From: an uncultured Pseudomonadales bacterium
Lineage (GTDB): Bacteria > Patescibacteriota > Microgenomatia > UBA1400 > UBA12108
Assembly (NCBI GenBank): GCA_964502225.1
Contig: CAZCUC010000002.1
Span: 9,092-73,091 of the forward strand
DNA length: 64,000 nt
Direction: 5' to 3'
Positions 3,405 through 60,015 of the stretch are shown here, piece after piece (position 1 is the stretch's first letter; the number at the start of each line of letters is the position of its first letter). Made by a program: the position numbers and the translations under genes. The notes beneath the pieces are model-generated. The model saw only the letters and a list, made by a program, of their open reading frames with translations, had not been told where the DNA came from and did no database searches.

Positions 3405-3881
3405 TTATACCTTCAGGGCCTGGCCCTGAAGGTCTAGGTAAGCTTGAATATCACGCTTGATGCCATCTACTGTGATTAGTTCAAGTGCTTCGGTTGGCGT
3501 TACCCAGGAATACTCTTCGTGCTCGTCGGACAATTTGATATCGAGTTGGTCGGTGGAAGCGACGAAAGTAATTCCGACTAATTCATTCTCTGCTGTTTCT
3601 TCGTGACCGCGATAAATATGCCAGCAAGTTAGTGGAGTGCCGGCAGTAATGGTGATACCTAGTTCTTCACCCACTTCGCGTACTAGACCAGCTTGAGGAG
3701 ATTCGTGCTGGGCGATGCGCCCATACATGATTTCCCATTCTCCTGGGTGCCAATCTAGTTTTTGACTACGTTTGATAAGGAGAATTTTGCCCACTGGATT
3801 GGTAATCACCGCACCGACCGCCACCATGAAACGACCAACTGGGTTATGCTCACTATTTGTATTATCGACTTTGTTTGTCAT
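3405..3881 (-). CDS. NUDIX hydrolase
   Basis: Nudix box GRIAQHESPQAGLVREVGEELGI (Gx5Ex7REUxEExGU). Start moved to the internal Met at 3881 to avoid overlap with the upstream aldo-keto reductase. Confidence 0.8.
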   Translation of the reverse strand: MTNKVDNTNSEHNPVGRFMVAVGAVITNPVGKILLIKRSQKLDWHPGEWEIMYGRIAQHESPQAGLVREVGEELGITITAGTPLTCWHIYRGHEETAENELVGITFVASTDQLDIKLSDEHEEYSWVTPTEALELITVDGIKRDIQAYLDLQGQALKV

Positions 3882-3885
3882 ATGA

Positions 3886-4803
3886 TTATTTAAAGTAAGG
3901 GATGTCCCACGAGTCGGATGGATCGACATAGCGTAGGCCTTTATCTAACATAGATAACTCTTTCATATCGGTTTCGTCGAGCTGGAAATCAAAAACTTCG
4001 ATATTCTCCTTGATCCTAGCTGGAGTGACGCTCTTGGGGATGACCACGGTGCCCCGCTCGATCGCCCAGTTGATAAGAATTTGCGCGACAGATTTGTTGT
4101 GTTTGGCGGCGATTTTCTTTACTACCGGATCTTCGTGGAGACGAGTAGTATTTAGCTCGACTCCCATGCGCCCAGTGGGCGAGTAGGCGGTGACTGCAAT
4201 ATTGTGATCCAGGCAGTAATCGACTAGCTCCTGCTGAGCGTTGTATGGGTGAAGCTCGATTTGATTCATAGCGGGGATGATGGTTGCATAGGACATAAGA
4301 TCATGAAGCATCATGGTGGAAAAATTTGCCACACCGATTGATTTAACAAGTCCAAGCTGGATGAGTTTCTCCATGGCCTCCCACGTTTCGCGGATGGAGA
4401 CTTTTTCCGTGACTGCTTTGCCGTCTTGCATAGGCTCTAACTCTTCTCCATGTTTAAAAGCCACACCCCAGTGCATGAGATAGAGATCGAGATAATCTAG
4501 CTGGAGATCTTGGAGGGTTTGTCGACAGGCGGCTTCGACGTTTTGTGAAGCGTGATTGGTATTCCAAAGTTTGCTAGTAATAAAAATGTCTTCTCTTTTT
4601 ATCGACTTAAACACTTCGGCGTATGCCTTACCTACTTCGGGCTCGTTGCGGTAGATCATGGCTCCGTCGATGTGGATGTAACCTGCTTCAGTTAGGGCAT
4701 ATCGCACTGCCTGACCGACTTGGTTGGGTAGGGACTTCCAGGTGCCCAAACCTATGGTTGGGATATTGTAGCCACTATTTAGTTTAATAGTTTTTTGTAA
4801 CAT
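3886..4803 (-). CDS. Aldo/keto reductase (AKR, 2,5-diketo-D-gluconate reductase-like)
   Basis: LNSGYNIPTIGLGTWKS N-terminal signature, IDGAMIYRNE, LYLMHWG, about 300 aa. Confidence 0.85.
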   Translation of the reverse strand: MLQKTIKLNSGYNIPTIGLGTWKSLPNQVGQAVRYALTEAGYIHIDGAMIYRNEPEVGKAYAEVFKSIKREDIFITSKLWNTNHASQNVEAACRQTLQDLQLDYLDLYLMHWGVAFKHGEELEPMQDGKAVTEKVSIRETWEAMEKLIQLGLVKSIGVANFSTMMLHDLMSYATIIPAMNQIELHPYNAQQELVDYCLDHNIAVTAYSPTGRMGVELNTTRLHEDPVVKKIAAKHNKSVAQILINWAIERGTVVIPKSVTPARIKENIEVFDFQLDETDMKELSMLDKGLRYVDPSDSWDIPYFK

Positions 4804-4811
4804 AACACTCC

Positions 4812-5435
4812 TTAGTTTGTAACTATTTTAGTTTCACCATCATTTACTATAACAGCTTGGTCGTCGCGGAGTGGGAGGACGATATTATCCTGATATCTTA
4901 AACTAAGGTCATCAAGTAGTGCTCTGTGTCGTAAGGCGTATTTTTCTCGCCCATAATGAGGAATTAACAGTTTCTTTATAAGATTGAGACCACTGAAATT
5001 GGTGAGTGCTGGAACTGGCATTTCTAGTGACTTCGCATATTCTATATCTGACCCCATGATGATAGATCCTGCACTACTACCGATATATACAGTCCCCTTG
5101 TCGATTAGCTCCTTGATGACGATGTCGAAACCAGATTTCTTCACTTCATTTAATAAATAGTAGGTGTTGCCACCGGCTACAAATATGACATGGAAAGGAG
5201 AGAGTTCGCTACTCAATATATCGACATTTTTATTTTTGAGATCGTAGTCGGTCACGGCAAATCCCATCTCTACCAACTTGGCTCGGTCGCCATCCATCCA
5301 CGGGCGACTATCTGCTGGGTAGGGATCTGCGGCAGTGGGGATAAAGGCGAGTTTGAGACTGCTTGGTTTGTCGGGGAGTAATGGGTAGACTAGGTCTAGT
5401 GTGGCACTGGCGAGACTGGCGAGAAAAAGTTTCAT
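4812..5435 (-). CDS. Peptidase S51 (dipeptidase E / cyanophycinase-like), paralog 1 of 3
   Basis: VAGGNTYYLL and YIGSSAGSIIMG nucleophile-elbow motifs of S51 peptidases. Confidence 0.75.
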   Translation of the reverse strand: MKLFLASLASATLDLVYPLLPDKPSSLKLAFIPTAADPYPADSRPWMDGDRAKLVEMGFAVTDYDLKNKNVDILSSELSPFHVIFVAGGNTYYLLNEVKKSGFDIVIKELIDKGTVYIGSSAGSIIMGSDIEYAKSLEMPVPALTNFSGLNLIKKLLIPHYGREKYALRHRALLDDLSLRYQDNIVLPLRDDQAVIVNDGETKIVTN

Positions 5436-5456
5436 TAAACCATTTTACAACAGTAG

Positions 5457-5753
5457 CTACTTGCGAAGACCAAAGTAGAGCATGGCAAGGAGAATGATTT
5501 TGAAAAAGTATCCACTGTAGGGGTCGATGGCCAGCTTGGTGAGTGGAGTCATGTTGCCGGTAGCGAAGTGGAAAAGGATACTAATGGGCAAAACGAGGAG
5601 CATCCATTGCCAGTGAGTGAGCTGTCTACCTGTAAATGTGATTAGCTTGTTGAGAAGAGGCACAAGGAGATAAATCCCAAGATAGGCAGTAGAAAAATCA
5701 AAAACTGCCAAATTGCCAATACGGAAAGAGCGGAGATATTCAATAGTGATCAT
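5457..5753 (-). CDS. Small hydrophobic membrane protein at the distal end of the cop operon
   Basis: 98 aa with three predicted TM helices. Overlaps the copZ stop by 4 nt. Confidence 0.35.
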   Translation of the reverse strand: MITIEYLRSFRIGNLAVFDFSTAYLGIYLLVPLLNKLITFTGRQLTHWQWMLLVLPISILFHFATGNMTPLTKLAIDPYSGYFFKIILLAMLYFGLRK

Positions 5754-5989
5754 TTGACCACAGTATAGCCTAGTTTCTCGATTATTGTGGTGAACTTAGA
5801 GGGGGACGTGAGTTTGGGGTCGTATGTGATGACTGACTCTTGCTTGGCGTAGCTGGTAGAGGTCGAGATGACACCAGGGAGGTCCTCTAAATCAGAGTCG
5901 ATGTTTAGTGAGCATGAGCTACAGTGGAGGCCACTCAGTTTGAGAGTAACGGTCGTTCCAACTGATTTTTTCTTGAATAAATTAAACAT
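5750..5989 (-). CDS. copZ: Heavy-metal-associated (HMA) domain copper chaperone, CopZ-like
   Basis: LKLSGLHCSSCSLNI: GMxCxxC-type HMA metal-binding loop. Confidence 0.75.
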   Translation of the reverse strand: MFNLFKKKSVGTTVTLKLSGLHCSSCSLNIDSDLEDLPGVISTSTSYAKQESVITYDPKLTSPSKFTTIIEKLGYTVVK

Positions 5990-6407
5990 GAATTTTGTCC
6001 AAATCCTGATTAATTACGCGTACGTCTAGTGCTAAGAGCTCGTCTTTGTAAGCGGCGTCATCGCTAAATTGGTTCCACACAAATATTTTTTTGTTTAAGT
6101 GAAATGCAAGACCAATTTCCATCAGTACGTTGGGGCCAATATAGCCTATTATTCCGTTTTTCTCGTTGTTAATGACAAGAATAGCATCGGATGAGGCAAT
6201 ATTGTCAAAATTTTCTTTAATGTATAGACCCTTTTGCAGACTCGTAGTTCTACCCTTGAAATTTTCTACTACAAAGTCGTTTTTGGCTTTCATCGTTTTG
6301 GCGGAGACGGGGATATCGACCTCAAATCCTTTGGCGATGAGATCTGTTTCAACTTGTACTAGTTCTTTATAAAAATTCATGCTGGCGCAGAGGAAGATCT
6401 TGGTCAT
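5982..6407 (-). CDS. Nucleoside 2-deoxyribosyltransferase-like (Rossmann-like) protein
   Basis: KIFLCASM...DAILVINNEKNGIIGYIGPNVLMEIGLAF resembles the NDT/PF05014-like fold. It sits inside the cop operon and overlaps both neighbours. Confidence 0.4.
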   Translation of the reverse strand: MTKIFLCASMNFYKELVQVETDLIAKGFEVDIPVSAKTMKAKNDFVVENFKGRTTSLQKGLYIKENFDNIASSDAILVINNEKNGIIGYIGPNVLMEIGLAFHLNKKIFVWNQFSDDAAYKDELLALDVRVINQDLDKIHV

Positions 6408-7444
6408 ATAACCTCCATAGTGCCACTATACATGCCCATAGAACAAGAGAAAGTATAGATACCCTTTTTGTCGGGAGTGAATGTAAAGACTTGATTGGTA
6501 TTGGGTTTAACAAAAGCATTGATACCAAAGGCGCGGAAAGTAAAAGCGGTAGCACAAGAGTAAACCTCGCCTGCATTTACTGTCAGTTTGACAGGGATAC
6601 CATTTTTTACAGCGAAATGTCTAGGCGAATAGCCACTATTCAAGATATTTATGGTAACTGGCTGGACGCCATCGACTAGGCTGGGAGTCGGGATGACCCT
6701 CTCTGTAGATTGGTCGTAGGGAGGCAAAAGTTTGACTATCCTAGGACCTAGCCGCTCGAGAGAATAGTTGCTGTCCATAACCTGGAGGATTCCGTTGAAT
6801 GAGTAGAGTGCCATGGCGATTAAGAGTACGGCGGCAGTACGGAGGAAGTAAATGCGCCAGACCTCACTGAGCTTGGCGGTCGCGATACCGATCAATACAA
6901 ACATGGGGGCAGTCCCCAGGACAAAAGTCCCCATAATCAGTGCACCCTGGAGAGGAGAGCCAGAACTGATGGCAAGGATCTCCATGGCCTGTGTGACTCC
7001 GCAGGGGATAAGAATAGTCAAGAATCCAAGGAGCCCGGGAGCGAACAATCGATCGGCTGTAGTATTATTCTTGATCAGTTTGCGCGCAAATTTGGGCGGG
7101 GTAAACGCCATAAAGCGGAAAATTGGGTGCACTTCGAGTAGGTTCATGGCAGAGGCAAACATGAAGAGCGCGGCAAAACCTTGGAAGAAGAGTCGCATGC
7201 TGAGGGAGAGTGTGATAGCAGATCCAAGCCAGCCGAGGAAAAAACCGAGGATGGTGTGGGCGATGAGTTTGGTCACAAGGAATGCAGTGACTCCTGCCCA
7301 GTCGTCTGCGCCGAAGCCTGGCTCTACTTTAAGCTTTTTTTGATTGGCGATGGTAGAGGCGAGGATCCCTCCTTGCATGGCGGCGCAGGTTACACCACCA
7401 CTGGTTAGACCAGTCAATAAAATGAGCCATAGATTCATATACAA
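6404..7444 (-). CDS. Polytopic permease with duplicated Cys motifs fused to a C-terminal cupredoxin-like domain, putative Cu transporter
   Basis: About 8 TM helices carrying two related motifs, GVTCAAMQGG and IPCGVTQAME. The C-terminal roughly 100 aa (VKLTVNAGEVYSCATAF...YTFSCSMGMYSGTMEV) looks like a Cupredoxin_1-type domain. Embedded in the cop operon. Confidence 0.5.
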   Translation of the reverse strand: MYMNLWLILLTGLTSGGVTCAAMQGGILASTIANQKKLKVEPGFGADDWAGVTAFLVTKLIAHTILGFFLGWLGSAITLSLSMRLFFQGFAALFMFASAMNLLEVHPIFRFMAFTPPKFARKLIKNNTTADRLFAPGLLGFLTILIPCGVTQAMEILAISSGSPLQGALIMGTFVLGTAPMFVLIGIATAKLSEVWRIYFLRTAAVLLIAMALYSFNGILQVMDSNYSLERLGPRIVKLLPPYDQSTERVIPTPSLVDGVQPVTINILNSGYSPRHFAVKNGIPVKLTVNAGEVYSCATAFTFRAFGINAFVKPNTNQVFTFTPDKKGIYTFSCSMGMYSGTMEVI

Positions 7445-7486
7445 GTGCTCCGATGTTCCGGTGTTCCAGTTTTCCGGTAGATATTT

Positions 7487-9775
7487 TTATAATTTAACAT
7501 ACTTTAAGCGTAAAGAATTGGTTACGACAGAGACTGAGGAAAAAGCCATGGCGGCGCCAGCGATCCCTGGGTTGAGCATGATCCCATAGAGAGGATAGAG
7601 GATACCTGCCGCAATCGGGATGCCAATAATATTGTAAGCAAAGGCCCAGAACAGGTTTTGCTTGATTACGCGGAAGGTGAGGCGGGATAATTTGATGGCT
7701 TGGGGTAGTCTCTCGAGATTGCCCCCTAGGAGCGTGAGTCCAGCGGACTCGATAGCCACGTCGGTACCAGTCCCCATGGCGATCCCCACATCGGCGGTCG
7801 CGAGAGCTGGGGCGTCGTTGACTCCGTCGCCTACCATGGCGACCTTGTATCCCTCGGCTTGCAATTTTTGCACTTCGTTAGCTTTGTCTCCCGGCATGAC
7901 TTCGGCAATAATTTTGTCAATTCCCACGGTTTTGCCAATATACTCGGCAGTCAAATGGTGGTCACCTGTCATCATAGCCACTTTGATCCCCAACTTGTGG
8001 AGATCTTTGATGGCTTGGATGGATTCGTCTTTGAGCGTGTCGCTGATGCCTAGGTACATAATAATCTCTTTGGATGAGGCCAAGATGATCGGGGTCGCGC
8101 CGACTGCGGCAGAACTTTCGATAACACCTTTGTCAATTTTGAGGCCCAAGGATGAGATAAGTTTGAGATTGCCTGCGTAGTAGAGTTTTTTCCCGATTTT
8201 GCCTTGCAAACCTTGGCCGGGAATCGACTTGAAGTCTGAGATTGATAAGAGTGTTAGTTTGTCTGATTTGGCTTTTGCGACGATCGCCTGAGCTAGCGGG
8301 TGCTCGGAGCTAGCTTCCAGTGAAGCGAGGTGGACGAGTGAGTCTTGTTCTGAGAGAGTACCTACTGTTTTGAGATTGGTAACGGTGGGCTCGCCTTTGG
8401 TCAGGGTACCCGTCTTGTCTAGAACAATGTAGTCTACCGCGCGCAACTTTTCGAGACTTTCGGCATTTTTGACCAAGATACCCTTTTGGGCGGCCTTGCC
8501 CACACCTACTATGATCGCGGTCGGGGTGGCTAGACCTAGGGCACAGGGACAGGCGATGACGAGGATGCCGACAAAACTGAGGAGTCCGAGGAGGGGGTTG
8601 CCTAGCGCTGTCCACAAAATGAAAACTAGCACGGATAAAACTATGACGATAGGCACAAAAACCGAGGAGATTTGGTCGGTCAGACGCTCGATCGGGGCGT
8701 GACTACCCTGTGCAGTCTCGACCATTTTGATGATCTGAGAAAGGATAGTCCCCTCACCCACAACAGTGGCGCGGAGATTGAACATGCCTTGTTTGTTGAT
8801 AGTGCCACCGATCACTTTGTCGCCGACGACTTTATCTACTGGGAGAGGCTCGCCGGTCAACATGGATTCATCCACGCTACTGTCGCCACTGATGATTTCT
8901 CCGTCCACTGGGATTTTGACTCCTGGTTTGACGATGACTATGTCTCCGATAATCACTTCGCTGACGGGGATCTCTGTTTCTTGACCATTGCGCAGAACGA
9001 GTGCTGTCTTGGCTTGCAAACCCAAGAGTTTTTCGATAGCTTCGCCGGTTTTCATTTTGGAGCCGGCCTCTAAGTATTTACCGAGGGTGATAAACGCAAT
9101 TACCACGATGGTGACGTCGTAATAGACTTGCTCTACTGCGAGGTATGGTGCGAGTATCCCCTCAAAGGCAGAAACGATAAACGAATAAAGAAATGCGACC
9201 GAGGTACCGATACCAATCAAGGTATCCATATTGGCAACTCTATACTGGACAAATCGAAACACAGACTTGATGTAGGGCAAACCTATGACAAATAACATAT
9301 AGGTGGCCATGATGGGGAGGAGATGGTGGAAAAAGGTTTTGACAGCATCAGGGTAGGGGAAGAATGATTCCCAAATCATCATCACGAGACTCACGGCGGC
9401 CAGCGGGAGAGAGATCTTGACCTGAGATTTTAGCTTGGCTAAATCCGCTAGTTTTTCGGCTTTTTTGGCAGGGTTTGTGCCTACGGGCCCCATGTCGTGG
9501 CCAGCATGGAGGGAATGATCCATTCTGGACATGTCGTAACCGGGGTGGCCCATAGGAGGATTGGGGTCGGTTGGTTTGATACTATAACCGAGGGGAGAGA
9601 TTAGCGAGTTAAATTTAGAATCATCAATGTTTTTGGTTGTCGACAACTCTGCAACCTCGGTAGCATAGTTTACGTCGACCGATTTCACCCCATCTACTTT
9701 GGAGAGCTTTTTCTTGATAATACTGGCACAACTGGCGCAATGCATACCAACCACTTCGTATTTTTTGGTGATCAT
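7487..9775 (-). CDS. copA: Copper-translocating P1B-type ATPase
   Basis: N-terminal [18 protein letters not shown] motif ([11 protein letters not shown]), DKTGTLT phosphorylation site, [10 protein letters not shown] hinge. Confidence 0.92.
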
Positions 9776-10215
9776 ACAACTCCTTTGTGTAAAGAATTAA
9801 ATTCTTTGAGACAACCTTTGCCGCAAAAGTAGTGGCGCACACCATCGTATTCGCAGGTATAGCTTGCAGAGCTAGGAGTTAACTGCATCTGGCAAACTGG
9901 GTCAACCACAGTGGGCTCGGCTTCGCTCATGGGTCTTGTTTTGGTTAGACCGTCGATAAAGATAGATAGTGTGGCAAAACGATCCATTGCGAGTACGTAA
10001 TACATTTCTTTGCCGATCTTTCTTGTCTTTACTAGACCGCACTGTTTGAGGAGTATGAGGTGCTGGGATACTGTTGCCTGGCGGAGCGCTGTCATCTGAA
10101 CTATCTGATTGACGGTGAGCTCGTGGCCATGCAAAAGACAGACAATTTCCAACCGTTTGGCGTGGCCGAGGACTTTGAGGTGGGCCGCGTTTTTTCTAAA
10201 CATTGATGACTGCAT
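9772..10215 (-). CDS. ArsR/SmtB-family repressor fused to a C-terminal TRASH/YHS-type metal-binding domain
   Basis: wHTH ([21 protein letters not shown]...VSQHL) plus DPVCQMQL...[11 protein letters not shown] Cys cluster. Its start overlaps the copA stop (ATGA). Confidence 0.7.
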
Positions 10216-10227
10216 ATATAGTCATCA
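10204..10227. promoter_or_regulatory. Perfect 8-bp inverted repeat TGATGACT-N8-AGTCATCA spanning the ArsR-family start codon, candidate auto-operator
   Basis: Seen directly in the sequence. ArsR/SmtB regulators bind imperfect inverted repeats overlapping their own promoters. Confidence 0.3.
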
Positions 10228-10253
10228 TATTCTATTTTTTGAATATGTCAAAT

Positions 10254-10730
10254 TTAGGATAGGGTAGAGATATAGGCATCGAGAGCTTGAACAAAAAATC
10301 CACTGTCTGCGCCAAAGTCGAATGATTTAAGCTCCTCAGGTTTCACCCATTTATACTCAGTATGTTCGCTAGACAAGACTACCTCCCCCTCCTTCGCCAA
10401 GGCTTCGGAGGACATGCCTTCCCAATCTGTGCTGGCATAACAGGCACCAAAAACTGTATCTCCTTTAAAAAACCCTTCCCCCACCCCTATCCTGTTGGTA
10501 AAAAAGATGGGTCGGAGAGAATGAACGATCAAACCGGCTTCTTCCATAACCTCTCGCTTGATGGCATCGATGACGTCTTCTCCCTGCTCATATCCCCCAC
10601 CGGGCAAGTCCCAGTTGCCACCACGCGAGTGATCGTCCTGTGCTCTTTTGAGTGCCAAAATTTTTCCGTCTTTGCCCACCATGATACATTTTTGGATTAA
10701 ACGAACCTTGTTGAGGATTTTTGTTATCAT
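10254..10730 (-). CDS. NUDIX hydrolase
   Basis: Nudix box GGGYEQGEDVIDAIKREVMEEAGL. Confidence 0.8.
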   Translation of the reverse strand: MITKILNKVRLIQKCIMVGKDGKILALKRAQDDHSRGGNWDLPGGGYEQGEDVIDAIKREVMEEAGLIVHSLRPIFFTNRIGVGEGFFKGDTVFGACYASTDWEGMSSEALAKEGEVVLSSEHTEYKWVKPEELKSFDFGADSGFFVQALDAYISTLS

Positions 10731-10761
10731 AAATACATTTTAGCACTGAAGACATACTACG

Positions 10762-10785
10762 ATAATTCGAATTATCGTAGTAATA
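10762..10785. repeat. Perfect 24-bp palindrome CTACGATAATTCGAATTATCGTAG
   Basis: Lies between the half-MFS gene stop and the NUDIX start. No U-tract follows on the minus strand, so it is either an operator or a processing/terminator hairpin. Confidence 0.4.
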
Positions 10786-10799
10786 ACTCCCACCACTAT

Positions 10800-11351
10800 T
10801 TATAGTGCTCGACGAGGGAGTAAATAGGTAAATATGGCACAGGCTATAGCGACTACTCCCATAAAATAGAACATAGGGTTAAACCCGTACCAAGTAACTA
10901 TAAAGCCTCCAATTAAGGTGGCCAATGAGGCGAGCAAATTGGAAATAGTTTTCCAGACAGCATAATCACGAATATGACTTGACCGGTCAAGATGTTCTGC
11001 CATGATGGCATCAAACCCAGTACTACCAACTGCTTCGCCGAGTCCAATGATGATTTGCAGAAGAATAATAGTTGGTAGACTGTGAGCGTAGATAAAACCT
11101 ATCCAAGCAATCGCTCTAAATACAAAGCCGACTATTAGAAAGTACTCGTGCTCCTTGACGCGATCACCGTAGCGGATCAAGAAAAAATTGACTAGTGTGG
11201 TGGTGAGGAGCATGACGCTCCAGGTCCCACTGACGACCGCAATGCTCCCACCCAATCCTTCGATGAAAACTGCGTATAGTGGACCCAAAAGATTGCCAGC
11301 TAGAACAAAAATACTATTGACCGCGAGGAGGATTTTGAGAGATTTATTCAT
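10800..11351 (-). CDS. Half-size MFS-like membrane protein (six TM, N-terminal MFS half only)
   Basis: Six TM helices. The loop 2-3 motif LIRYGDRVKEHEY resembles MFS motif A. Only 183 aa. Confidence 0.45.
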   Translation of the reverse strand: MNKSLKILLAVNSIFVLAGNLLGPLYAVFIEGLGGSIAVVSGTWSVMLLTTTLVNFFLIRYGDRVKEHEYFLIVGFVFRAIAWIGFIYAHSLPTIILLQIIIGLGEAVGSTGFDAIMAEHLDRSSHIRDYAVWKTISNLLASLATLIGGFIVTWYGFNPMFYFMGVVAIACAIFTYLLPRRAL

Positions 11352-11363
11352 GATTGTAAAACT

Positions 11364-12020
11364 CTAAATATTCGAGGAATTAGAGTTATTATTTTTTACG
11401 TCGATTATTTTGAATGAGTCGTCTTTGACTTCAACGTATTGAGTATCGGTGAGCATAATATATGGATAGTTTTCGTTATAACTGTTTGGAATTTTATATT
11501 CAAAACAATAATCTTTCTTTTTTACATCACCCCAATGAGGCATAACAACAAAATTGACTAGATTCAGCCCTTTCGTGCTCGCTAAATTGTACATATCAGC
11601 AGACTTACCAGGCCTATTAACAGATGATGTGTCGGGACCAGCAAGAATAGAGCCTGCACTAGTTCCTATATAAATTAATCCTTCCTCTACCTTTCTTTTA
11701 ACAAACTCAATGAAATTATTCTTTTGAGCTTCTTGCTGTAAGTAAAAAGGATTACCACCTTCAATGTACATAATGTCGTATTTATCCAAATCTAAAACTA
11801 TTTGCTCGGCCGACTTGCCCGCAATATCGTACATGTCAAAAACAAAGCCTGATTCCTCCATTTTTGACTTGTTCAGTTTGTGCCAATCAAGATTTGAATG
11901 TACTTGATCACGAATAGTCGTGTCGATAAATACGGCTTTCAGCTTAACCTCATCCCCAAGTGTTTCGGCGATCTTATCGGCAACGTGCTGTACCTGTGAA
12001 GTCAAAAAAAGTCTTTTCAT
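11364..12020 (-). CDS. Peptidase S51 (dipeptidase E-like), paralog 2
   Basis: IEGGNPFYLQ and YIGTSAGSILAGPD motifs. Confidence 0.7.
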   Translation of the reverse strand: MKRLFLTSQVQHVADKIAETLGDEVKLKAVFIDTTIRDQVHSNLDWHKLNKSKMEESGFVFDMYDIAGKSAEQIVLDLDKYDIMYIEGGNPFYLQQEAQKNNFIEFVKRKVEEGLIYIGTSAGSILAGPDTSSVNRPGKSADMYNLASTKGLNLVNFVVMPHWGDVKKKDYCFEYKIPNSYNENYPYIMLTDTQYVEVKDDSFKIIDVKNNNSNSSNI

Positions 12021-12661
12021 TTCTCTCTCCTGACATCGACAATTTTAAATTGGATGCCTACTACCTCAACATATTGGTCGTTGTTTAGAGTGATCAGTGG
12101 AGTCCTCTCTTTATACATCGGCTCAAGATTATTTGTGAGATATGATTTTTTGAAAATATCACTACCCCAATGTGGAAGTACACAGAAATTCACTAAGTTG
12201 TAGCCAGCATACCCATTCAATTCAGGGGCAAGCCTGACATCGTCGATACCTAAAATTGGTTCTAAATCTGGCCCTGCGATAACTGACCCTGCACTACTAC
12301 CGATGTAAGGTAGTCCATTTTCTACTTTTTCCTGGATGATTTTGATAAAGCCTGTTTTTTGAGATTCTTGGAGTAAGTAAAAGGTGTTTCCTCCTGACAT
12401 AAAAATAACGTCTATAGAGGCTAAAGCATCACTTAGCTGCTTTTCAGATTTACCACTGACTGAAAATTCAATAACATCAAATCCTGCACTCCTGAGTCCA
12501 TTCATATCATCTTCATACCATGAGAGATCTTGTCGCACCTTGTCTTCTGTGGCAGTTTTTATGCATAGTGTTTTAAGTGGAGAAGACTTTCCGATTTTCT
12601 TAAATATATCCTGGGTGACTGTGCGATTTTCAATACTGCTGGCCAGGAAAAGATGCTTCAT
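12017..12661 (-). CDS. Peptidase S51 (dipeptidase E-like), paralog 3, in tandem with and 4-nt overlapping paralog 2
   Basis: MSGGNTFYLL and YIGSSAGSVIAGPD motifs. Confidence 0.7.
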   Translation of the reverse strand: MKHLFLASSIENRTVTQDIFKKIGKSSPLKTLCIKTATEDKVRQDLSWYEDDMNGLRSAGFDVIEFSVSGKSEKQLSDALASIDVIFMSGGNTFYLLQESQKTGFIKIIQEKVENGLPYIGSSAGSVIAGPDLEPILGIDDVRLAPELNGYAGYNLVNFCVLPHWGSDIFKKSYLTNNLEPMYKERTPLITLNNDQYVEVVGIQFKIVDVRREK

Positions 12662-22649: not shown

Positions 22650-22661
22650 TATAGGTCAATG

Positions 22662-22732
22662 TTGCGGGACTAGGACTCGAACCTAGGAGACGACATTCAG
22701 AGTGTCGCATGATACCACTTCATCATCCCGCA
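22662..22732 (-). tRNA. tRNA-Gln (anticodon CUG)
   Basis: Manual fold of the minus-strand sequence: 7-bp acceptor TGCGGGA/TCCCGCA, D-arm ATGA-AGTGGTA-TCAT, anticodon stem CGACA/TGTCG with loop CTCTGAA (CTG at 34-36), T-arm CTAGG-TTCGAGT-CCTAG. CCA not encoded. Confidence 0.8.
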
Positions 22733-57914: not shown

Positions 57915-58451
57915 CTAAGGTTTCGACCGACCGCGAATGCCAGTCTTTTGATATTCAAGTGCTTTTCTCAGTAAATCAATCCTTACGATATAGCTATCCT
58001 TATTAAATCTCCTGAGTAAACTGGAGTAGTGATTTGTGGGTGCTAATACTTTTAATAACTTCTTATTTGCTTCGAGATATTCTACTAAACAGAAAAAATC
58101 GCCATCTCCTGAGACAATGATCGCCTTGTCGTAGTGCTTGTACTCGATCATGGTGTGTAATACCAGTTCGGCATCGACATTCCCTTTTACAATGACTTTA
58201 TCACCCTCTTTGTGTTCAAGAGTTGGTTTGAAAATGCAAATATATCCTGCTTTCTTAAGTGAAGCGTAGAGTGGTTCGTTGCCTTGGATAAGACCGATAA
58301 ACAAGTAAGCTTTAGACACATGATATTTGTCGGTTAAGTAGCGGCGAAACTTGGCGAAATCTAGCGTCCAACCCTGAGACTTGACACCTAGGTTAAGGTT
58401 TTGACTATCAATAAAGGCGTAAACTATTTTTTCTTTCGTTTTCTTTTCCAT
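57915..58451 (-). CDS. NYN/LabA-like PIN-fold domain protein
   Basis: IVYAFIDSQNLNLG...AIIVSGDGDF, conserved NYN acidic residues. Confidence 0.65.
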   Translation of the reverse strand: MEKKTKEKIVYAFIDSQNLNLGVKSQGWTLDFAKFRRYLTDKYHVSKAYLFIGLIQGNEPLYASLKKAGYICIFKPTLEHKEGDKVIVKGNVDAELVLHTMIEYKHYDKAIIVSGDGDFFCLVEYLEANKKLLKVLAPTNHYSSLLRRFNKDSYIVRIDLLRKALEYQKTGIRGRSKP

Positions 58452-58526
58452 GCTTCCAATTTATCCCAAACACTACCCGAATGTCAACGGGATCAAAATA
58501 TCACGTCACTTATTAATTTGTGTAAT

Positions 58527-59087
58527 TTATGTCAATAATTCAGGAAGTCCAATTCTGGATAAGTATCCTGAGAATCTTTGAGATAGTTCCTCACGGAACA
58601 ATTCACTTAAACTTGCCAAGTAAATTTCCTTCTTTCTATCGTATAGAAATTTTCTAGGTAATGTAAAAAAGTGCTTAAAATCTAATATTAATTCTGGAAT
58701 TAAGTAGTCTTCATGCTTACTTAAATAATGATATCTTTTATACTCATCATTTTTTCTTAGTTTCTCTAACTCCCGGTTACTAAAAACTCTCATTGGCCAA
58801 TCATCGATTTGTTTGCCTAGTGCAAATTGTTCTATGTGATATGCGGGACATACCAGCATTGATCTTAAATACTTGTCATTATTACTTTCCTTGCCGCGAC
58901 TATTGTAATCTTGTTCTATATCACAGTCTTGACTAAGTATTACTGCATATTCTAAAGAAACATGATCCTTTTCTGTATCTAATCCAGCATCACCCACAAC
59001 GAAATCGAGGTCTTTCAGTATGTCTCCTTGATATAGTCTTGAATTAGGACTTTTCCTATACTTCTTTTTAATCTTGCTTTTGAGCAT
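58527..59087 (-). CDS. Hypothetical protein C (186 aa) of the low-GC island
   Basis: ORF in about 31% GC DNA with basic termini and a central acidic D/E cluster (LSQDCDIEQD). Nothing recognised. Confidence 0.4.
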   Translation of the reverse strand: MLKSKIKKKYRKSPNSRLYQGDILKDLDFVVGDAGLDTEKDHVSLEYAVILSQDCDIEQDYNSRGKESNNDKYLRSMLVCPAYHIEQFALGKQIDDWPMRVFSNRELEKLRKNDEYKRYHYLSKHEDYLIPELILDFKHFFTLPRKFLYDRKKEIYLASLSELFREELSQRFSGYLSRIGLPELLT

Positions 59088-59259
59088 AGTTAATTGTACC
59101 GAAAGATGTTCTTTTTACAGTGTAGCTTTGATTATCACGGGAAAGAACTGCGTCTGTTTCGTCAGGATAACCATTTTCAGTTGTTTGAGGTGTCCCTGAG
59201 AAATCCTGATAATCCGTAGAATCGGCATGATTTGGTTGATATATATTTAATCCATCCAT
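59068..59259 (-). CDS. Small acidic low-complexity protein B (63 aa) of the low-GC island
   Basis: Short ORF between genes A and C on the same strand. Overlaps C by 20 nt. Coding status uncertain. Confidence 0.25.
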   Translation of the reverse strand: MDGLNIYQPNHADSTDYQDFSGTPQTTENGYPDETDAVLSRDNQSYTVKRTSFGTINYAQKQD

Positions 59260-59262
59260 ATA

Positions 59263-60015
59263 CTATTTATTCATCAGACTTCTTAAGCCATCTTTTATGG
59301 ATAATTCGAACAAACTTAGTATTTTAGAATGATAATTTTCAAGAACATCATTCAAGTATAAACCTTCAACATCTAATGGAAATTTTGAGTAAACGTTGTA
59401 ATCTAGGATAAAAAATTTATCAACTATTTCGCTTGGAAATTTTGGATTCCAAAGGCCGTAATTCAAGCGAATATCTCCAACTTCATCCTTAATTACTATT
59501 AATCCCATTAATCTAGCAAGTGATTTACTATTCTCTATAGCAAAACTGATTGGTCCCAACATTTTTTCGTTAATGTATTTATTCCAATTTAAAGGATCTT
59601 CTTCCTCTATTTTAATTTCATTAATAAAGCGGAGTCTTAGTTTCGTTACTGTATTAATTTTAAATTTTTTTACAAAATCTTCAACAATTGGAATACTCTC
59701 AATAACCTGCTTAAATCCAACGTATTCCGAATACTCAATCGTCAAGGAAACGGGTGAAAAGTTAATTTTAGTTCTTCGTGACTTATCGTAGATATTCCAC
59801 GCTGAAATTGCATGTGCAACCTGTTTAACTTCTTTGGTTTTGAAGTTAAAGTTTATCAATCCTTCTGCACCTGAAACTTCTTCAATTATGGGAAATTCTT
59901 TTTCGTATTTGGTATGAAAAGCCTTTAGTTTTCCCAACTCAACTTTATCAAAATCTATACCCAAAACGACTTTTTTTAGAAAGTTTCGTTTATACGTCAT
60001 AATTATCTCCGTCAA
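59263..60015 (-). CDS. Hypothetical protein A (250 aa) of the low-GC island
   Basis: Long ORF in low-GC DNA. Possible resemblance to uncharacterised conserved families (a TIGR04255-type impression only). No motif. Confidence 0.4.
   Translation of the reverse strand: MTEIIMTYKRNFLKKVVLGIDFDKVELGKLKAFHTKYEKEFPIIEEVSGAEGLINFNFKTKEVKQVAHAISAWNIYDKSRRTKINFSPVSLTIEYSEYVGFKQVIESIPIVEDFVKKFKINTVTKLRLRFINEIKIEEEDPLNWNKYINEKMLGPISFAIENSKSLARLMGLIVIKDEVGDIRLNYGLWNPKFPSEIVDKFFILDYNVYSKFPLDVEGLYLNDVLENYHSKILSLFELSIKDGLRSLMNK

Follow-up and report, generated by a model that had tools for sequence, protein, structure and literature searches.

What does a membrane protein with a copper-site domain at its C-terminus do between a copper-exporting ATPase and a small metallochaperone? 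This question is raised by six co-directional minus-strand open reading frames (ORFs) found at positions 5457-10215 of a 64,000-nucleotide stretch of DNA (the window), which was taken from contig CAZCUC010000002.1 of an uncultured bacterium deposited as Pseudomonadales. In the order of transcription, the cassette encodes a regulator with an ArsR-type DNA-binding domain and a TRASH domain, the ATPase CopA, a protein that joins a DsbD_2 membrane domain to a Cupredoxin_1 domain (the fusion, in what follows), a nucleoside deoxyribosyltransferase (NDT)-like protein, a chaperone with a heavy-metal-associated (HMA) domain and a membrane protein of 98 residues. The locus is a copper-resistance operon, as a first-pass annotation made by a model from the letters alone had supposed, and its CopA bears the Cu(I) P1B-1 signatures CPC, YN and MxxSS. 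We read it, tentatively, as a copper cassette of Patescibacteria in which the fusion would relay Cu(I) by exchange between thiol ligands, with an external CupA-like domain.

The fusion had been listed from a TTG at 7444 as a permease of 346 residues, but its most likely start is the ATG at 7438, because every homologue begins with MNLW; the resulting length of 344 residues matches that of all the homologues, and a GGAG at around 7446-7449 precedes this ATG. In searches against Pfam, the protein matched DsbD_2 (PF13386, E value 2.6e-26, 93.2 bits against a cutoff of 24.9) and Cupredoxin_1 (2.6e-11), a pairing that is already visible in precomputed Pfam annotations. The UreH-type nickel permeases of urease systems may belong to the DsbD_2 family as well. 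The initial guess of a DUF318/SO_0444 family was replaced by DsbD_2, as no such family was matched at E ≤ 0.01 in Pfam or NCBIfam, and the searches did not assign the protein to any well-characterised non-metal transporter family. The membrane domain has six hydrophobic transmembrane helices (TM1 to TM6), with an invariant cysteine in TM1 (C18, in GGxTCxxMQGG) and another in TM4 (C146, in IPCGVTQAM). The Met and Gln residues next to these cysteines are conserved, and N99, H104-P105 and N215 are also invariant in the relatives. The three motifs picked out in the first pass, GVTCAAMQ, PCGVTQAM and, in the C-terminal domain, YTFSCSMGMYSG, are all present in the fusion and invariant in its relatives. 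An internal duplication with one cysteine per repeat had been proposed as well; the two cysteines hold, but the support for the duplication itself is marginal, in such a way that a shallow alignment of one half against the other gave an E value of 0.16 with the cysteines out of register, and a deeper one (hhalign) reached 0.025 with the Cys and the Gln residues of both halves aligned.

To sample the diversity of the family, the membrane domain alone was searched against 1.84 billion cluster representatives, where it matched 2143 clusters at E ≤ 1e-3, and 131 representatives (at least 240 residues long) of clusters at 50% identity were examined. All 131 matched DsbD_2, 108 matched Cupredoxin_1 and 38 matched DsbD_TM (PF02683), and no fusion to a thioredoxin or an HMA domain was found among them. 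The cysteine of TM1 was conserved in 117/117 sequences and that of TM4 in 130/130, and the putative copper ligands of the C-terminal domain were kept almost as strictly, with values of 115/118 and 114/116 for its first and second cysteines, and of 104/116 and 107/115 for the first and second Met of the C-x-M-x-M motif.

The C-terminal domain is cupredoxin-like, as it had been annotated, and more specifically CupA-like, by both its fold and the alignment of its ligands with those of CupA. Residues 253-345 match the solved metal-binding domain of the CopA protein from S. pneumoniae (Protein Data Bank (PDB) ID 4F2F, E value 1e-9) and the solved CupA protein from the same organism (4F2E/2MRY, 4e-8), and in a profile search the matches to the CopA domain and to the CupA structures strengthened to 2e-12 and 5e-10. 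The upstream cysteine and the C-x-M-x-M motif align (FSCSMGM against FSCGMKM and FACGMNM), the ligands in the fusion being C295 and C332-x-M334-x-M336. In CupA, the Cu(I) sites are made up of residues C74, C111, M113 and M115, which have a part in the reduction of Cu(II) too; this protein has been reported in a few streptococci only, and the reductant that restores its cysteines was left unidentified (PMC5646241).

The side of the membrane at which this domain lies was predicted in two ways. The mean number of Lys and Arg residues is 3.2, 5.3 and 3.2 in the loops between helices 1-2, 3-4 and 5-6 (11.7 in sum, inside), and 0.1 in the N-terminus, 1.0 in loop 2-3, 0.1 in loop 4-5 and 3.1 in the 25 residues that follow TM6 (4.3, outside), a distribution that predicts an N-out, C-out membrane domain. 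In addition, 15 of the 16 N-terminally extended representatives carry a hydrophilic tail of 13-154 residues rich in Lys and Arg, followed by an extra helix, a short connector poor in Lys and Arg, and TM1, and the fusion from Chlorohelix is a further example of such a tail and extra helix. Since the tail has no signal peptide it must stay inside, and the six-helix core would consequently start and end outside. From these sequence features, the CupA-like domain most likely lies outside the cytoplasm. In the copper-tolerance cluster curA of Myxococcus, one of the proteins listed is a Cupredoxin_1 protein for which a signal peptide is predicted (PMC3707914).

The conservation of the neighbourhood was studied through a scan with one genome per species, which gave 507 loci with a relative of the fusion. 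The best 80 of them (48-90% identity) were studied, a sample that is biased to close relatives because these are the most similar of the 507 hits. Almost all the 80 belong to Patescibacteria (Microgenomates, Woesebacteria, Pacebacteria and Saccharibacteria), the exceptions being a TM6 genome, a metagenome-assembled genome (MAG) of Limisphaerales and a 'Vitreimonas' MAG. By tblastn with the proteins of the window, the order ArsR-YHS, CopA, fusion, HMA was detected throughout the related loci, and metagenome contigs showed the same core gene order. Where the locus left room for the neighbour, the HMA gene was found downstream of the fusion in 79/79 cases, and the genes for CopA and ArsR-YHS upstream of it in 73/73 and 66/72, respectively. 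The composition that the first-pass annotation had called unusual is, for this four-gene core, the ordinary cassette of Patescibacteria, and the fusion together with the HMA protein is its invariant unit. As the same gene order is present in about 80 other species, this layout is not the product of chance.

The pair of fusion and HMA genes is also present in Actinomycetota, Deinococcus and Chloroflexota. A Tsukamurella plasmid carries ATPase, fusion, HMA, merA and multicopper oxidase genes, and a Mycolicibacterium plasmid the ATPase, fusion and HMA genes; in the Streptomyces plasmid pFRL6 the fusion and HMA genes have the ATPase gene next to them on the opposite strand. The pair is followed by the gene of a YHS protein in Chlorohelix, and neither there nor in Deinococcus is there an adjacent ATPase gene, from which we argue that the pair is a unit on its own. 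The plasmid homologues of the fusion are uniformly annotated as "sulfite exporter TauE/SafE family protein", a name without profile support. On the Tsukamurella, Streptomyces, Deinococcus and Mycolicibacterium plasmids, the pair was observed inside metal-resistance islands; those of the cultured carriers variously include merA/merB and a multicopper oxidase, and the islands of Tsukamurella and Streptomyces have separate genes for CcdA and TlpA/peroxiredoxin. It was also observed that many records titled "uncultured Pseudomonadales" or "Gammaproteobacteria" (L007, L009, L010 and L013-L015 among them) show a clear Microgenomates/Patescibacteria synteny, and their taxonomic labels look wrong.

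As for the two metal-binding partners of the fusion, CopA matched the HMA, E1-E2_ATPase and Hydrolase families of Pfam and also TIGR01511 (579 bits against a cutoff of 397), and it carries the motifs GMHCASC, CPC409, DKTGT453, SEHP, YN714 and MAFSS743, among which is the complete set expected for the P1B-1 group. The small chaperone matched the Pfam HMA family (2.3e-12, 47.6 bits against a cutoff of 24.8), has its CxxC motif (CSSC) at residue 23 and lacks a signal peptide; its scores for the NCBIfam equivalogs specific to CopZ and MerP did not reach the cutoffs, and its best similarity in that database was to a MerTP fusion (1.5e-14, sub-cutoff).

The regulator matched HTH_5 (6e-11, 42.5 bits against a cutoff of 22) and YHS (2.7e-10, 40.5 bits against 30.3) in Pfam, and NF033788 (HTH_metalloreg, 75.7 bits against 55) in NCBIfam. 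Its cysteines are arranged as C108-x22-C131-x3-C135, which fits the TRASH signature C-x19-22-C-x3-C and is invariant in 69/69 relatives, so the proposal of an ArsR domain joined to a TRASH domain was confirmed. Residues Q46, S50, Q51 and H52 are also kept in the 69 relatives, and the positions of the recognition helix QAxxSQHL and the TRASH cysteines, taken together, are conserved in 63-69 of them. Regulators of copA with a helix-turn-helix and a TRASH domain are known in archaea (PMC3600143).

Upstream of the regulator, the sequence TTGACA-16-TATGAT (10251-10224) is the best promoter match within 5200-10400, with 11 of the 12 positions, and its TTGACA and the adjoining downstream sequence are kept in close relatives. 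The -10 hexamer ends around 8 nt before the ATG, which suggests an mRNA that is leaderless or has a very short leader. Between the -35 and -10 hexamers, and overlapping both of them, lies the palindrome CATATTC-N8-GAATATG, which has this single match in the 64-kb window even when up to two mismatches are allowed. Most of 64 distinct upstream sequences have its core, ATATTC-N8-GAATAT, either shortly before the start of the regulator or across it, down to a regulator identity of 33%. Such conservation is a strong phylogenetic footprint of an autoregulated repressor, and makes the palindrome the candidate operator of ArsR-TRASH. A different inverted repeat, at 10204-10227, had been put forward as the binding site; the repeat is real, but the site conserved upstream of the regulators is the palindrome at 10226-10247. 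As RNA, the repeat TGATGACT-N8-AGTCATCA has a folding energy of -11.3 kcal/mol (z -3.3). Only the closest relatives have it, and their arms have changed and yet are complementary (TGATGAG/CTCATCA in locus L004, as reported by a script, and TGGTTG/CAACCA in L008, as read by eye). It may form a hairpin in the RNA or serve as a secondary site. A small hairpin around the start codon of the regulator (10196-10232) was seen again in the upstream regions of related Microgenomates (L004, L008, L014, L015 and L018-L020), with arms that differ in sequence and still pair.

Taking the observed domain identities, ligand conservation, gene linkage and operator sequence as a basis, the following mechanism can be proposed. 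The ArsR-TRASH repressor would occupy the CATATTC-N8-GAATATG palindrome over its own promoter and, by analogy with the archaeal TRASH regulators, would be released from the DNA by the binding of Cu(I) at its TRASH domain. This derepression would lead to the synthesis of CopA, the small cytoplasmic HMA chaperone and the 344-residue membrane protein. Cu(I) would then move from the CxxC of the chaperone to C18/C146 in the membrane, with the help of M21/M152, and from these to the external C295/C332/M334/M336, in a path parallel to CopA or downstream of it. For the fusion we infer the topology, the direction and the species transported; the outward direction is probable because the genes would be induced together with CopA. 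A relay of metal is preferred because the invariant partner binds metal, no thioredoxin-fold partner is fused or linked and the pair exists without the ATPase, in such a way that a Cu(I) relay across the membrane appears as the most economical reading of the sequences.

Several points weigh against this proposal. The parent superfamily of DsbD and CcdA moves electrons, not metals, and 38 of the 131 relatives match the genuine DsbD_TM model. A passive Cu(I) exporter beside an ATP-driven one has no obvious source of energy. The external location of the domain is a prediction based on the positive-inside rule and on the extended homologues, and the pneumococcal CupA and CopA domains, in contrast, work in the cytoplasm. 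The membrane domain had no match among solved structures, the AlphaFold2 (AF2) model of the fusion is of moderate quality (predicted local distance difference test, pLDDT, 75), and in the open-access literature no experiment was found on any member of the family. A more ambitious version, namely that the fusion and its obligate HMA partner constitute an unrecognised class of ATP-independent, chaperone-fed Cu(I) translocators built on a CcdA/DsbD scaffold, whose membrane cysteine pair would carry metal in place of electrons and whose external CupA-type domain would be the acceptor, as a signature of Patescibacteria that is also present in Actinomycetota, Deinococcota and Chloroflexota, is speculative and seems to us rather doubtful.

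The main rival is an electron relay in the manner of CcdA/DsbD/ScsB, in which a cytoplasmic thiol donor would act through the TM1/TM4 cysteine pair to keep the external CupA-like cysteines reduced, allowing them to bind Cu(I) or to reduce Cu(II) in surroundings that are oxidising and rich in copper. The match to DsbD_2, and that of some relatives to DsbD_TM, put the membrane domain in the DsbD superfamily; it has a single conserved cysteine in each of TM1 and TM4, as CcdA does, and the fused external domain with its cysteine pair mirrors the architecture of DsbD. Moreover, the predicted outside location is where thiols would need to be re-reduced, pneumococcal CupA reduces Cu(II) via C74/C111 with an unidentified source of re-reduction (PMC5646241), and proteins of the ScsB type have a link to copper (PMC7785015). 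However, the invariant neighbour of the fusion is an HMA metallochaperone and not a thioredoxin-fold protein, none of the 131 relatives has a thioredoxin-like domain fused, and two actinobacterial plasmids carry separate CcdA and TlpA/peroxiredoxin genes nearby, which suggests that this job is already covered. The TM1 motif of the fusion is (T/S)-C, whereas that of CcdA is Pro-Cys. We consider the electron relay unlikely.

Import of the metal, in the manner of MerT/MerP, is a second alternative, and a rather improbable one. The external cupredoxin would here capture a thiophilic metal, Cu(I), Ag(I) or Hg(II), and hand it over through the membrane cysteine pair to the HMA protein and from it to CopA, MerA or cuproproteins, an architecture that parallels the path from MerP to MerT and to the HMA domain of MerA. 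The sub-cutoff similarity of the chaperone to MerTP is in line with this, and so are the merA and multicopper oxidase genes that follow the pair in Tsukamurella and the merB gene near it in Deinococcus. The six cassette ORFs, to which the screening was confined, include no MerA, and in around 73 loci of candidate phyla the fusion and the HMA gene are co-transcribed with an efflux ATPase under a repressor released by metal, a context in which a copper-induced import would be counter-productive.

If the cupredoxin faced inward, the fusion could be a cytoplasmic analogue of CupA, this is, a membrane-tethered Cu(I) chaperone or Cu(II) reductant that feeds CopA, with the polytopic domain mainly as an anchor. 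The closest solved relatives of the domain, CupA and the metal-binding domain of CopA, do cooperate in Cu(I) export (PMC5646241), and in 73/73 loci the fusion gene comes directly after copA. Nevertheless, both the charge distribution and the homologues with the extra helix predict an external C-terminus, a mere anchor would not need two invariant cysteines in the membrane, the pair is found without an adjacent ATPase, and the CopA encoded here already has a classical HMA domain in addition to CopZ, all of which makes this possibility rather improbable too. The last alternative, a TauE/SafE-type exporter of sulfite or organosulfonates unrelated to metals, deserves almost no credit, as its support is the name in public annotations, while only DsbD_2 and Cupredoxin_1 were reported for the protein with no PF01925 match at E ≤ 0.01, every locus examined places CopA/HMA/TRASH genes next to it, and the protein carries copper ligands of the CupA type.

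The features of the cassette are collected in Table 1. Its six genes, which had been described as co-directional and overlapping, are indeed co-directional and overlap at the junctions regulator/CopA (4 bp), fusion/NDT-like (4 bp), NDT-like/HMA (8 bp) and HMA/98-residue protein (4 bp), but a spacer of around 48 nt (7439-7486) lies between CopA and the fusion gene. Short imperfect direct repeats (ccggaaaactggaacaccggaacatcggagca) were noticed in this spacer (7445-7486). No element of a known RNA family was found in 5000-10600, and the search for terminators gave no such site in the 21 bp that follow 5457, beyond which the next genes are co-directional.

Table 1. Genes, domains and regulatory sites of the copper cassette, with their positions in the window.
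Feature	Coordinates	Strand	Basis
ArsR/SmtB winged-helix regulator with C-terminal YHS/TRASH domain, 147 residues	9772-10215	-	Pfam, NCBIfam
CopA, P1B-1 Cu(I)-exporting ATPase with one N-terminal HMA domain, 762 residues	7487-9775	-	Pfam, NCBIfam, motifs
DsbD_2 + Cupredoxin_1 fusion gene, ORF as listed	6404-7444	-	Pfam
Six-helix DsbD_2 membrane domain of the fusion, residues 1-225	6764-7438	-	Pfam, 93.2 bits
CupA-type cupredoxin domain of the fusion, residues ~253-344 (stop codon at 6404-6406)	6407-6682	-	
NDT-like protein (N-ribosyl hydrolase/transferase superfamily), 141 residues	5982-6407	-	Fold, sub-cutoff Pfam match
HMA-domain metallochaperone, CopZ-like, 79 residues, LHCSSC	5750-5989	-	Pfam HMA
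Membrane protein, 98 residues, no family	5457-5753	-	Three hydrophobic segments, by eye
Sigma-70-type promoter-like site, TTGACA-16 nt-TATGAT	10224-10251	-	11/12 positions
Palindrome CATATTC-N8-GAATATG, candidate operator	10226-10247		Conserved upstream of regulators
Inverted repeat TGATGACT-N8-AGTCATCA across the regulator ATG	10204-10227	-	Complementary arms, RNA folding

In the most plausible reading, the two remaining genes of the cassette are passengers that a single Microgenomates lineage transcribes along with the others. The NDT-like protein matched Nuc_deoxyrib_tr (PF05014) with an E value of 9e-4 and 19.8 bits, under the cutoff of 28.8 bits, although some of its homologues carry a precomputed match to this family. 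Its AF2 model (pLDDT 95.7) found its best folds in the CMP N-glycosidase BcmB, nucleoside deoxyribosyltransferases, YtoQ and DNPH1, with TM-scores of 0.5-0.6, and its residue E97 is invariant in the homologues; this evidence supports membership of the superfamily only. Loci L001, L008, L015, L022, L090 and L092 carry the gene between those of the fusion and the HMA protein; in L010 and L094 it is found upstream of the whole cassette, in L028 it comes after CopZ, and in L093 it is unlinked. A role as a component of the metal system was rejected in view of its absence from most cassettes, its varying position and its occasional lack of linkage. The same was concluded for the 98-residue protein, which had no match in Pfam or NCBIfam: of its 38 homologues, all those with a source name come from bacteria of the candidate phyla radiation (CPR), its gene follows CopZ in only four of the best 80 loci (L007 and L019-L021), and the distant homologues are unlinked to cop genes and placed in unrelated contexts. 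A gene with a RibD_C domain was observed near homologues of the NDT-like protein (L090, 5717-6229; L093, 910-1467) and of the 98-residue protein (L099, 4339-4893), away from cop genes in all cases, which hints that both passengers belong to a different, nucleotide-related neighbourhood.

Regarding the surroundings, the region 3405-12661 is wholly co-directional and syntenic across Microgenomates, and no terminator was found in it between the cop genes and their co-directional neighbours. It includes three Peptidase_S51 paralogues (4812-5435, 11364-12020 and 12017-12661), two NUDIX genes (3405-3929 and 10254-10730) and an aldo-keto reductase gene. The gene at 10800-11351 encodes a 183-residue protein whose match to the MFS_1 profile covers the first half only (positions 3-173 of 347), and it looks like a genuine half-size protein rather than a truncated one because a relative (L094, 2942-3493) keeps the length of 183 residues. 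Farther away, a low-GC island at 58001-60000 (GC 0.335 compared to around 0.46 elsewhere), which may be foreign DNA, contains a gene for an NYN-domain protein (57915-58451) and two ORFs without Pfam family (58527-59087 and 59263-60015), and a tRNA-Gln(CTG) gene at 22661-22732 is the sole tRNA gene in the 64 kb.

Searches of the open-access literature returned no work on the fusion or its CupA identity, on the probable location outside the cell, on the strict pairing with the HMA protein, or on the regulator and operator of the candidate phyla. The copper site of CupA, presented as a streptococcal peculiarity, recurs, joined to a membrane domain similar to DsbD, in no fewer than 108 of the 131 clusters examined, out of 2143, and in several phyla, and a systematic error of annotation, by which the fusion is named a sulfite exporter, can be corrected. 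The conserved ArsR-TRASH repressor and its palindrome would represent the first defined metal regulon for bacteria of the candidate phyla. If the proposed Cu(I) relay is true, a CcdA/DsbD scaffold has been re-used for the movement of metal, and the question of how Cu(I) is dealt with at the surface of cells that lack an outer membrane receives a concrete answer; if the electron relay is true, the "unknown reductant" postulated for CupA gains a candidate. Both readings are testable, as culturable carriers exist (Deinococcus sp. QL22, Streptomyces sp. F12 with pFRL6, Tsukamurella and Mycolicibacterium aubagnense).

How does this system compare with those already known? Among regulators, the archaeal CopT/CopR of Sulfolobus and VNG1179C of Halobacterium likewise join a DNA-binding domain to a C-terminal TRASH domain and control a copper ATPase and a chaperone (PMC3600143), but the DNA-binding domain described here is of the ArsR/SmtB type and not of the Lrp type, the host is bacterial, and the position of the operator over the promoter suggests a repressor. 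For the membrane domain, the COG2836 proteins of gut Firmicutes (HMA / DsbD_2 / DUF2318), predicted in the CsoR copper regulon, similarly place DsbD_2 in copper-regulated operons beside HMA proteins, and are likewise uncharacterised; their other fused domains and their regulator, CsoR, are different, and the paper mentions no cupredoxin domain or CupA (PMC4938975).

The resemblance to the mercury uptake systems MerT/MerP and MerTP is functional, consisting of a membrane cysteine pair, an external domain for soft metals and a cytoplasmic HMA acceptor, with a metal that would move by thiol ligand exchange. MerT has three helices, and its membrane fold is unrelated to that of the fusion; the external domain is an HMA domain in MerP and a cupredoxin here, and the direction is likely the opposite and the metal likely copper. 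With CcdA, DsbD and ScsB the fusion shares the six helices, the essential-looking cysteines, one in TM1 and one in TM4, and a fused or partnered external domain that contains cysteines. The topology of CcdA is N-out/C-out, and that predicted for the fusion is alike. It differs from them in its Pfam family, which is DsbD_2 and not DsbD_TM, in a conserved neighbour that is a metallochaperone with no thioredoxin-fold partner, and in the conserved Met and Gln beside its membrane cysteines. ScsB has been linked to copper tolerance (PMC7785015).

The closest parallel to the external domain is found in CupA and the N-terminal domain of CopA from S. pneumoniae, which have the same site made of one upstream cysteine and C-x-M-x-M. 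With respect to CupA, the tether here is a six-helix domain that bears cysteines instead of a single helix, the cupredoxin is C-terminal, and a classical HMA chaperone and a CopA of the HMA type are present alongside it; and whereas CupA is, as described, confined to a few streptococci, the domain reported here is widespread.

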